From Lingula anatina (Eukaryota; Animalia; Brachiopoda): DNA of 64,000 nucleotides. The notes beneath the pieces were generated by a model. That model was not told where the DNA came from and did not search any database. It saw only the letters and a list, made by a program, of their open reading frames with translations. The position numbers and the translations under genes were made by a program. Position 1 is the stretch's first letter; every line of letters begins with the position of its first letter. The DNA is taken from positions 7,688,001 through 7,752,000 of the forward strand of contig CM120643.1 of NCBI GenBank assembly GCA_051362555.1, written 5' to 3'. Positions 1 to 3,732 of the stretch are shown here, piece after piece.

Positions 1-396
1 AGTCCGAAAATTAACCCTAACCCTAAATCACGTGATCACGTTGCATGCGCACGCGCGCACGGCCATAACGGCCTTACGTCATATCAGCGTTGGTCACTTC
101 CACTCCGTTCAATCCTAGCGATAAGACGTGTTTTCTGGAGGCTCCAAAACGGCTCATATTTGCGGAGAAACCTGTTTTTTCGGCATTCTGTGCTTATATC
201 CAACGTGCAAACTACCTTTGAAAGTATTGGAGAGGATTTTTATTCTTAGAAAGGAGACATACAACGCCAAACGGAGATTTGAACGGCGACCGCCATCTTG
301 TAAAACCTTCGAGGATTTATTGGATTATTACAAAGGACAACCGGAATACAAAGGATATACAGAACTAGCGGAATATTTTAAAAAGAAGGATTAAAC

Positions 397-1233
397 ATGC
401 CAGCAATACCTCCTGTTCACTTTGGAGCACCTACTTTTCAATTTGGAGATCCTGCACCTCCACCTTACGGTCAGGTAAGAGCACAACGTAAAGCAAATTG
501 GTGTTTTACTAGCAGACAAACCAATACGGTTGCCTTCCCTGTCACTGATCACTATGGAGCAGGACCGTTCCACTATAATTCCCTTGCCTACAAGATTATT
601 GTTGGACCGGTGGAGCAACCAGACCAGTTCGAGAATGTTGCACATCGCCACGGTATCATTAGAATGTTAAATGGAGCTGTTATTACTGCACGGCAGGCCC
701 TTTCTATTCTTCATCGCCATGGATTAGCAGATCCCATGGAGGATGAAATTTATCTTCAGCCCTTAAAGGGTACTTTTGGAGGATATGTGGAATACTGCTT
801 CAAATCGGAACAACAGGCACGCAATAGGAGGAGCGTCGCCCAAGGAGGAGGAGATGCCGAGGACATCGAAACACAGGAGGATGTTACATCAATCCCTGCA
901 GTAGGATCGGAGAAAGACGTCATGATCAAGTCTGCCATAGATTCTATCAGGCAATCAGGTGAGGTCGTAGATTATACTAGCTTACGTAGTGAAATCATTC
1001 GTTCTCACGGGGTCCATCAATGGACCAAAGTTATCAAAATTGCAGAAGAATACTTGGCCCATATGGCCTCCTCAGATAGCAGGCGAGTTATTGATGTTCC
1101 TTATGACGATGACGCCAATGTAGAGCAATACTTGAAAGCTTTTGCGGCATTTGAAAATGCTATTGCTGATAATTTAAACACCAATGGTTTAGATACCTGT
1201 CATTCAGCACCGATATTTCTTTTGATAAAATAA
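397..1233 (+). CDS. HUH rolling-circle replication initiator (Rep/NS1-like) endonuclease domain, C-terminally truncated; probable endogenous viral element or HUH transposase
   Basis: Uninterrupted, intronless 278-codon ORF with a real ATG. It has correctly ordered RCR-like motifs I (KANWCFTS), II (VAHRHGII) and III (YVEYCFK). No Walker A is present. The last ~9 codons run into unrelated EnSpm sequence at ~1206. Confidence 0.7.
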   Translation: MPAIPPVHFGAPTFQFGDPAPPPYGQVRAQRKANWCFTSRQTNTVAFPVTDHYGAGPFHYNSLAYKIIVGPVEQPDQFENVAHRHGIIRMLNGAVITARQALSILHRHGLADPMEDEIYLQPLKGTFGGYVEYCFKSEQQARNRRSVAQGGGDAEDIETQEDVTSIPAVGSEKDVMIKSAIDSIRQSGEVVDYTSLRSEIIRSHGVHQWTKVIKIAEEYLAHMASSDSRRVIDVPYDDDANVEQYLKAFAAFENAIADNLNTNGLDTCHSAPIFLLIK

Positions 1234-1565
1234 AAAGATGAAGACCATCACATGGGACCTACCCCTTTATCTCAGCTAAACATTGAAATGGTGTCATGCT
1301 TTCCTCTTGATTATATGCACCTTGTTTGTCTGGGGGTAGTGAAAAGGCTGTTAAATCTGTGGATGAAGGGCCCATTATCCTGTAGAATTGTTAATAGGGT
1401 ATTGCAAGAAATATCAAGACGTTTAGTGGCCTTAAAAGACAGTATACCATCAGAGTTTGCAAGAAAACCTTGATCACTCTTTGAAATTGCATACTGGAAA
1501 GCAACTGAGTTTCGGCAGTTCCTTCTGTACACAGGTCCAATATCACTGTTTGAAATTGTGCCTGC
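1207..1565 (+). pseudogene. EnSpm/CACTA (CMC) transposase fragment
   Basis: Translates as TDISF..DEDHHMGPTPLSQLNIEMVSCFPLDYMHLVCLGVVKRLLNLW...IPSEFARKP*SLFEIAYWKATEFRQFLLYTGP. The DYMH/LGV and WKATEFRQFLLY blocks are typical of animal EnSpm transposases. In-frame stop at 1471-1473. Confidence 0.85.
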
Positions 1566-2429
1566 AACTGTGTATTAAAACTTTATATTATGAAGCTGGG
1601 ATACATTTAAAAAAGCAGCTGGCATTTGCCAAGATGCATGCTACAATACAATCAAGAGTCACTGGTAAGATGGGCCAGTTGAAGCATATCACAGAGCTTG
1701 TTACCAAGATTACACCAACACAGAACACCCTTACAAGGCTGAAAAAGAAAAGGTCAAGAACTGATGCTGACAATTTTACATATTGCATGTTGGTTTCTTC
1801 CTTGCTTTCCATTTTTAAAGCTCTATCCTTTCTTTTATTTGTTAGCTTTTGCCTTGAAAATGCCTCCACCAAAGCATTTGCATTCATCTGTGCTTTTTTG
1901 GGACTTATGTTACTCAGCATGAGCTATATTATTTGGCTCCATTGGAAGAAGGTACTGGAACAAAATTTTGTGTTGCACTTGCATATTTGGGCACTTTGAT
2001 AATAAACTCCAACTGTGATCCATCTAAAATTTTGTTAAAAATGATGAACCACAAGAAAACATTCCAAAAGAACACTGAAGAGGATTCAGCAGCTTTTAAA
2101 AGTCAACAAGATTTTAAGTAAAGAAAAACAACCTGCAAATGGGGGAAAAAATGGTTATTCTGGGAGTAATGACAAAATTGACAAAACAATACTTTACTTA
2201 CTGTTTTACTTGAAGTCCAAACCAGATTATTATCAATGGCAAAGGAAATTGAAAAAAAAATCAATCTGTTCTCAATATAGCATCTTTTTACCCTGTCAAA
2301 TTCAATTTTGAGTTTACAGACCCTTTTGCCTGGAATGTAATTAGTTTTCTATGTATTACTTATAATGAATTTTAGGAGTTAAAGAAGGAAATCACAGGTA
2401 ACTTCGATTGGTACTGTGAGAAAGGAATG

Positions 2430-3114: not shown

Positions 3115-3183
3115 ATTACTATCAGTACTTTTGTTTCTGGTTGTGTCAATTATTGGTGAGACTGCCATTGCTGGCTTTCAAGG
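2430..3183 (+). repeat. Copy 1 of a ~0.75-kb direct duplication carrying spliced exon remnants (copy 2 at ~7430-8231)
   Basis: Collinear near-identical blocks, e.g. gaattctcagagtttaccagag, ataatgttgactcccatccaagaaaag|gt, (TA)n and gttgtgtcaattattggtgagactgccattgctggctttcaagg, occur at both places. Confidence 0.9.
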
Positions 3184-3732
3184 TTTCCCATTCCTGAGGA
3201 AGAGGCAGAGCATGAAATAGGAAAGGAGACACAGTCTAGTCTCTTTGTATGTTTAGATAATTATAAGTTTAACTTATGCTTACAGTAATGTACTGTTCTA
3301 TTTGTTTTCATTAAAAGTCTATAAGTAAGTAATGCAACATGATGTTATATTTTCCATCAAATTCATATCGAAATAATATAAAACTTGGTCACAAAGTGCT
3401 CACTTTATTCTCCAGTTTCCCATTCCGGAGGAAGAGGCAGAGCATGACAAAGAACAGGAAAGACGACAGTCTAGTCTCTTGGTAAGAATAGATATTTTTC
3501 ACTTTTTCCTTTTGCTTACAGTTACTGTACTACATGTTTTCATTGGTATCATCTCTTCAAAGTCTCTTAATTGCAACATGGAATGGTACTTTCCATTAAA
3601 TTGAATTTGAAATAATACTGAGCTGTTTTTGTTTAAAAAAAAGCATTCTCTTTAATTCTTCAGTTTCCCATTCCAGAGGAAGAGGCAGAGCATGAAAAAG
3701 ACATAGAACAGATAGCAGAGTCCAGTCTCTTG
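3184..3732 (+). pseudogene. Three tandemly duplicated acidic mini-exons (3184-3246, 3416-3481, 3664-3732) of an unidentified gene
   Basis: Each encodes FPIPEEEAEH...SSL(L/F) and ends at a GT donor. Copies 2 and 3 start after a polypyrimidine-CAG. Lengths are 63, 66 and 69 nt, all multiples of 3. Confidence 0.7.

Follow-up and report, generated by a model that had tools for sequence, protein, structure and literature searches.

The window analysed here is a stretch of 64,000 nt from the Lingula anatina assembly. Its start is a 1.2-kb island (GC 44%, CpG observed/expected 0.88) lying within repeat-rich DNA of 35% GC. We assigned the following features to the island and to the host repeat that adjoins it:

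34 to 396, plus strand: CpG-rich upstream region (CpG observed/expected 1.41 over 1-400 versus 0.08 over 1210-2400)
125 to 394, plus strand: open frame without an ATG, ending 2 nt before the Rep ATG; not supported as a gene
397 to 1233, plus strand: truncated Rep ORF of 278 aa, virus-like in codons 1-271 and read from a host repeat over its final 7 codons and stop
481 to 813, plus strand: HUH (Y1) endonuclease domain, assigned from an AF2 model and structural matches
499 to 510, plus strand: RCR motif I, WCFT (W in 55/58 and T in 56/58 homologues)
643 to 654, plus strand: RCR motif II, HRHG, with the predicted metal-binding HxH (H83 in 58/58, H85 in 56/58 homologues)
784 to 804, plus strand: RCR motif III, YxxYxxK, with the predicted catalytic Tyr133 (Y130 in 55/58, Y133 in 56/58, K136 in 56/58)
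889 to 1089, plus strand: middle helical domain (weak winged-helix-like matches, Z 5.6-5.8; family profile 46 bits)
1201 to 1209, no strand assigned: 9-nt microhomology junction, common to the virus-like sequence and the host repeat
1201 to 1620, plus strand: degenerate host repeat of high copy number, containing a transposase-like frame that is broken; assigned from a rise in depth and from its frames, without a Pfam match

A first-pass annotation had singled out the ORF at 397-1233 as the sole long unbroken frame. Indeed, it runs through 278 aa without a stop or a frameshift and is the only stop-to-stop frame above 200 aa in the 64 kb, the second longest (187 aa) being located at 1436-1999. 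The chance expectation for an open run of this length is about 6e-6. The tetrapeptides WCFT (from 499, aa 35), HRHG (from 643, aa 83) and YCFK (from 793, aa 133) occur in this order, and their earlier reading as RCR motifs I-III is borne out by residues that are near-invariant in 58 relatives. Motif II is, as had been proposed, a true HxH, which 56 of these relatives keep; between the two histidines, the family has Q, Y, W or R. The distance between motifs I and II had also been considered long. At 45 aa it is long compared with CRESS Reps but ordinary for the family, whose median is 44. The linker that follows motif III comprises 44 residues in the window protein versus a median of 16 in its relatives. 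The N-terminal extension is proline-rich and is encoded by an imperfect 21-nt tandem repeat at 408-449.

Searches with the single ORF yielded little: Pfam returned no match, a word-indexed protein search returned 366 candidates of which none was significant, and PDB sequence searches gave no significant match. An exhaustive phmmer search against 1.84 billion representatives detected 11 matches with identities of 24-35%, the best at E 1.9e-12. A further 47 proteins came from two profile searches, which brought the set to 58 relatives; all 58 were kept for the motif counts. A profile built from these relatives without the window protein gave the window ORF scores of 76.5 and 46.1 bits, and hhalign aligned the ORF to the family alignment A4 over aa 29-271 (probability 99.9, E 5e-34). 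Full-length relatives measure 436-587 aa and continue into a helicase with Walker A and Walker B in 58/58, motif C in 56/58 and the arginine finger in 57/58. Walker B is DD in the family. CRESS Reps also present DD at this position, whereas parvoviral NS1 presents EE. Based on these motifs, on one match to DUF5906 and on Atlas, the helicase is called SF3-type. From its sequence, the window ORF is thus predicted to be the N-terminal half of a Rep that combines a Y1 HUH endonuclease with an SF3-type helicase.

None of the databases queried gave this family a name. Where the relatives carry a source name, it is "hypothetical protein" only. Among 34 members searched against Pfam, neither Viral_Rep nor Gemini_AL1 matched at threshold; DUF5906 matched one member (E 4e-6), RNA_helicase matched three weakly, and Parvo_NS1 matched one below threshold (E 0.02). 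Parvoviridae NS1 occupied rank 7 in Atlas. The relatives that were checked did not match the Pif1 or Helitron families. In PDB, the sequence search gave a weak match to the Vientovirus Rep (E 0.03), and a PHROGs search with 11 members gave a single weak match, to an unrelated entry. Scans of IMG/VR with the ORF and three alignments returned no confirmed family member, and tblastn found no match in plasmids and phages. A scan of metagenomes confirmed 4 of 53 pattern hits as family loci (L001-L004). GTDB genomes likewise gave no confirmed member: of 36 pattern hits, one 24-aa stretch (L005), which scored 2.3 bits with the family profile, was rejected as chance. In a tree of the common N-terminal half, the window protein sits on a long branch (33% identity to the nearest row) outside any firmly supported group. 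These results support the suggestion that the ORF belongs to an unclassified HUH lineage, here a Rep lineage without a family name in the databases queried. Its full-length homologues carry a C-terminal SF3-type helicase and are not a Helitron RepHel.

Structure prediction pointed in the same direction. A single-sequence fold of the window protein reached a pLDDT of 51 and was discarded; the alignment-guided AF2 model reached 83. The best structural match of this model was FBNYV M-Rep (Z 7.7, rmsd 2.9, 84 aligned), followed by pMV158 RepB and PCV2 Rep (Z 7.2 each). Rep nuclease domains filled at least the top five rows (Z 6.8-7.7, rmsd 2.7-3.7), and the named matches in a viral structure library were CRESS-type Reps with E-values of about 1e-4 to 1e-3. 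No parvovirus NS1 nuclease was found among the best 50 rows listed in either VIA structural search. Atlas gave matches of 0.92 for the window protein, with a recognition value under the reliable level, and of 0.97 for a full-length relative, with features that indicate Cressdnaviricota and plasmid Reps. The structural Z-scores all lie below 8 and are modest when taken singly, but they agree with the motifs and the Atlas matches. An RRM-like HUH nuclease fold of the window protein, for which the structure search had been proposed as a check, is therefore supported by the model. The helical domain at 889-1089 would sit where other Reps have their oligomerisation domain.

The virus-like part of the ORF ends abruptly. 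Homology to the relatives stops at aa 271, a median of 38 residues before Walker A and 259 residues before the relatives' end, and the family profile did not detect the helicase part elsewhere in the window. The first-pass annotation had placed the loss of the helicase half at a junction at 1206. The loss stands; the junction is an overlap of 9 nt at 1201-1209 rather than a point. A sister copy of the Rep sequence fits the window as far as 1209 and other copies of the host repeat match it from 1201 on, so these nine nucleotides belong to both sides. The chance of such a microhomology is roughly 6e-5. Contigs of samples S1 and S2 (runs X1 and X2) span the junction up to 1238 with 0 differences; the evidence consists of assembled contigs, and either sample may be the source of this assembly. 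Their depth over the ORF (58 and 72) is low, flat and near that of neighbouring low-copy contigs, and summed depth past 1207 rises in both to 300-700 and even to thousands. The flanking repeat, for which Pfam gave no match, is presumably CACTA/EnSpm-like. The locus is hence a Rep fragment joined to host DNA, as expected of an endogenous viral element.

The sister copy comes from sample S4 of another study (runs X4 and X5). It matches window positions 551-1209 at 92% identity, with 52 differences in 659 nt, and continues for 879-897 nt past 1209 with a different sequence. The first 30 letters of this continuation, judged by eye, keep an open frame and look like the columns that follow in the family alignment. 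On its 5' side the copy is itself broken: the 25 letters ahead of 551 have no fit to the window and, again by eye, lose the frame. Among the differences listed, 30 of 40 fall at third codon positions (p 8e-8). This excess suggests that the two copies diverged under selection outside the genome and would represent separate entries. The low-depth run X3 contains pieces of both variants. Runs X16-X18 contain next to none of the words of the locus, which does not prove its absence. Three RNA runs gave 0 reads on the locus, a result that does not bear on its expression. The unbroken frame of the window copy and its retained CpGs (0.63), compared to the CpG-depleted flank (0.08), suggest that its insertion was recent.

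Upstream of the Rep, the region at 34-396 is likely the element's own 5' non-coding region, with a left boundary that is not fixed. Contig matches begin at 34 in run X2 and at 38 in run X3. In the X2 contig, the 24 letters ahead of 34 are unmatched, which may mark the left boundary or a difference between alleles. The X1 contig extends 235 nt further upstream than the window. No surviving hairpin was found above shuffles in positions 1-120 (fold z -0.40 and -0.75), and short matches of the window's 5' region to the four free loci were not significant. A compact virus-like layout had been proposed from the open frame at 125-394. The frame does stop 2 nt before the Rep ATG, but it has no ATG of its own and no homologue in Pfam, in the stored proteins or in L001-L004, so it is not supported as a gene and we rejected it. 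Two TAACCC telomere-like units occupy positions 12-25, immediately before several short palindromes clustered at 26-72; the window has no other array of this type. A 27-nt repeat is found at 329-375.

The free relatives are short molecules. The longest contigs of the 58 clusters range from 1456 to 3557 nt (median 2138), and in just two clusters is there more than 1.2 kb outside the Rep ORF. One cluster, of 546-aa proteins, has members that recur on contigs of about 2.2-2.6 kb. As a point against a strict one-gene layout, a few contigs would have the length for a second gene: P0005 (3557 nt), P0026 (2820 nt) and P0087 (3798 nt). Each of the four metagenomic loci carries one long ORF, the Rep; other ATG frames reach at most 136 aa and mostly overlap it, and none of the four loci has a capsid gene. 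Perfect terminal palindromes are present in three of them (L001, 98 nt; L002, 84 nt; L003, 96 nt), and these three hairpin-ended loci have no terminal overlap. L001 additionally has a 5' hairpin, whose stem measures 30 bp and whose 12-nt loop is not palindromic. In L003, an imperfect second hairpin lies immediately inward of the end. Perfect palindromes at contig ends can also be fold-back artefacts; however, L001 and L002, whose Reps are 82% identical, have a palindrome centre in common (79% identity), which argues against random artefacts of this type. L004 differs in having a terminal direct repeat of 120 nt (95% identical) without a hairpin, an arrangement that is compatible with a circle too. 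In the loci read, no hairpin loop contains a nonamer resembling NANTATTAC. The linear single-stranded form of these relatives, drawn from assemblies, is accordingly a prediction. The four loci all come from one subfamily, other than the branch of the window protein, which is long, so their architecture is extrapolated to the window.

Several smaller elements were observed in these loci. One 12-mer is present in both end hairpins of L001 (15-58 and 2005-2060); we take it to fit the CTCF consensus, but it is not kept in L002 and is possibly due to chance. Three of the four loci (L001:205, L003:29, L004:216) have the conserved sequence TAAGGAGGCG at 100-130 nt before the Rep ATG, L002 being cut there; this sequence constitutes a candidate promoter element. 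Two imperfect copies of about 75 nt lie between the Rep stop and the right hairpin (L001:1715-1887, L002:1537-1698, L003:1596-1797) and are candidate origin or enhancer repeats. Finally, several ATG frames of 90-136 aa run antisense to the Rep on the minus strand of L001 and L002; these are probably shadow frames.

On balance, these results make it probable that the locus is a truncated Rep copy that stems from an unclassified multipartite virus, namely from its replication segment, the virus genome being predicted to be linear, hairpin-ended ssDNA. The absence of room for a capsid gene implies either such a segment or a helper-dependent or capsid-less replicon. Parvoviruses replicate by a rolling-hairpin mechanism at their terminal hairpins, and the free element probably does likewise: a terminal hairpin would prime synthesis by a host polymerase, the Rep would bind near the hairpin and nick through Tyr133 with the HxH metal site, and the SF3-type helicase would unwind the end, which would then be copied and refolded. 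The capsid gene would be located on another segment. We infer in this way the strandedness, linear topology, encapsidation, partner segments and catalytic activity of the free element. Microhomology-mediated repair at 1201-1209 likely attached the fragment in the window to a decaying transposon of the host. Having neither a helicase nor a right end, the window copy would not replicate on its own.

Alternatively, and this is the main rival reading, it is possible, if doubtful, that the free element is a satellite or a plasmid-like replicon without a capsid. It would replicate by rolling hairpin, rely on an unrelated helper virus for packaging or spread in no particle at all, and form a linear counterpart of an alphasatellite. 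The Rep-only layout of all four loci and the lack of room for a capsid gene in 56 of the 58 clusters fit this possibility, but one gene per segment is equally seen in multipartite viruses. It is also favoured by the failure to find a partner segment: a search of IMG/VR viral contigs with the Rep alignments and three hairpin patterns came back empty. However, IMG/VR was the only place searched for partners and holds no confirmed family member, so this was not a fair test. It is unlikely, although conceivable, that a new family of circular molecules, either CRESS-type viruses or Rep-only circles, was instead the source, with the palindromes as amplification or assembly artefacts or as a long origin stem-loop. 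The nuclease fold is indeed nearest to nanovirus, circovirus and pMV158 Reps, Walker B is DD, motif I is present, and L004 has its terminal direct repeats. Against a circle, the palindrome centre is common to two contigs whose Reps are 82% identical, the two ends of L001 are different hairpins that share a 12-mer, the stems measure 30-49 bp, and the loops lack the nonamer.

The evidence favours virus-like extrachromosomal DNA over a transposon, the two origins between which the first-pass annotation had left the choice. A eukaryotic rolling-circle transposon of Helitron or Replitron type equipped with an SF3 helicase is disfavoured and very improbable. The chromosomal site beside a transposon and the two related copies in the species would suit it, but none of the 58 relatives lies on a contig longer than 3.6 kb, contig depth stays low and flat across the ORF, in contrast to the flanking repeat, and the right end is a microhomology break within the gene rather than a terminus. 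The Y1 and SF3-type architecture is neither Y2 with SF1B nor helicase-less, in the terms of passages of PMC10288648. Finally, there is hardly any likelihood that the Rep fragment is not integrated at all and that the assembly fused a free viral molecule to a host repeat. The junction does rest on assembled contigs, and X1 or X2 may be the assembly's own source; yet short-read contigs of two samples cross it to 1238 with 0 differences and at a depth near that of low-copy neighbours. The preferred reading thus remains that of an endogenous copy of a multipartite virus segment.

We compared the family with known systems, citing the literature largely from passages of the papers. CRESS-DNA Reps (nanovirus M-Rep, circovirus Rep) and pCRESS or pMV158-like plasmid Reps have in common with it the Y1 HUH motifs I-III, the middle helical domain and, in the relatives, the SF3-type helicase, and they provide the best fold and Atlas matches. 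In contrast to CRESS Reps, many family members have a non-hydrophobic middle residue in the HxH, the proteins reach 436-587 aa and the motif I-II spacing is long. Unlike in CRESS viruses, three of the four loci are hairpin-ended rather than circular, and no capsid gene accompanies the Rep. Family molecules also differ from Parvoviridae, by their size of about 2-2.6 kb, their single ORF and their DD Walker B. A replication protein with HUH and SF3 domains is likewise found in Parvoviridae (PMC13426907), which the predicted linear hairpin-ended molecules also resemble, and this combination is described as a hallmark of Floreoviria (PMC13595969, PMC10288648).

Segmentation has precedents among small DNA viruses. 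The segmented densovirus of Acheta domesticus is a linear bipartite member of Parvoviridae (PMC10880892), and two linear bipartite animal ssDNA viruses are known from the literature passages, including PMC10880892. Bidnaviridae and Vesanto virus resemble the proposed source as segmented linear small DNA viruses of invertebrates, the Drosophila Vesanto virus having as many as 12 segments, which measure 3.3-5.8 kb and bear inverted terminal repeats (PMC8363768). In Mouviricetes, a protein-primed PolB stands in place of the HUH domain (PMC13595969); the family differs in having shorter molecules and an intact HUH domain that is joined to the helicase in one protein. Endogenous RepE1 cressvirus fragments of sea anemones (Buck et al., 10.1101/2024.03.25.586562 / PMC11071296) are similar in that a Rep fragment is joined to host repeats in a marine invertebrate. 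Six helicase peptide motifs of the family were absent from the 6 smaller supplement files of that study and, judged by these files, RepE1 is a different Rep family from that of the window.

Helitrons (Y2 with an SF1B helicase) and Replitrons (Y1 HUQ, without a helicase and high-copy; PMC10288648) likewise place an HUH enzyme in a eukaryotic chromosome. Both were rejected as identifications. For Helitrons, the relatives' 436-587 aa, SF3-type motifs and lack of a Pif1 or Helitron Pfam match do not fit; for Replitrons, the HxH in 56/58, the helicase motifs in 58/58 and the low flat depth do not.

An endogenous viral element is by itself an ordinary, known kind of object. The Rep family behind the locus looks undescribed and looks to combine an enzyme and molecule ends in an unusual pairing. 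We found no published description of this family in the literature covered (titles, starts of abstracts and passages, including PMC11296320), nor any group in which linear hairpin-ended molecules carry a CRESS-like Rep; this literature lay mostly outside subscription journals. According to current views (PMC10288648), parvoviruses arose from circular viruses that encode a Rep. Tentatively, and with rather less than even confidence, we propose that the family constitutes an undescribed, family-level lineage of animal ssDNA replicons in which a CRESS/plasmid-type Rep is carried by linear, hairpin-ended, one-gene molecules, the locus being its first host-anchored trace. Such a lineage would either be a surviving intermediate of the step from circles to hairpins that led to parvoviruses or have made this step independently, and would have entered the brachiopod germ line recently at least twice, with insertions that still vary among individuals. 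The family comprises at least 58 unnamed protein clusters of public assemblies, which searches of Pfam, PDB sequences and IMG/VR do not reveal, and the endogenous copies supply its first animal host, a brachiopod. The terminal hairpins constitute a direct handle for tracing partner segments and, hence, for distinguishing a virus from a satellite.

Outside the island, we observed three related repeat units at 3180-3730 of the window. They are spaced about 230 nt apart, and each consists of a short acidic coding-like stretch followed by GT. These units may be tandem mini-exons or a satellite.
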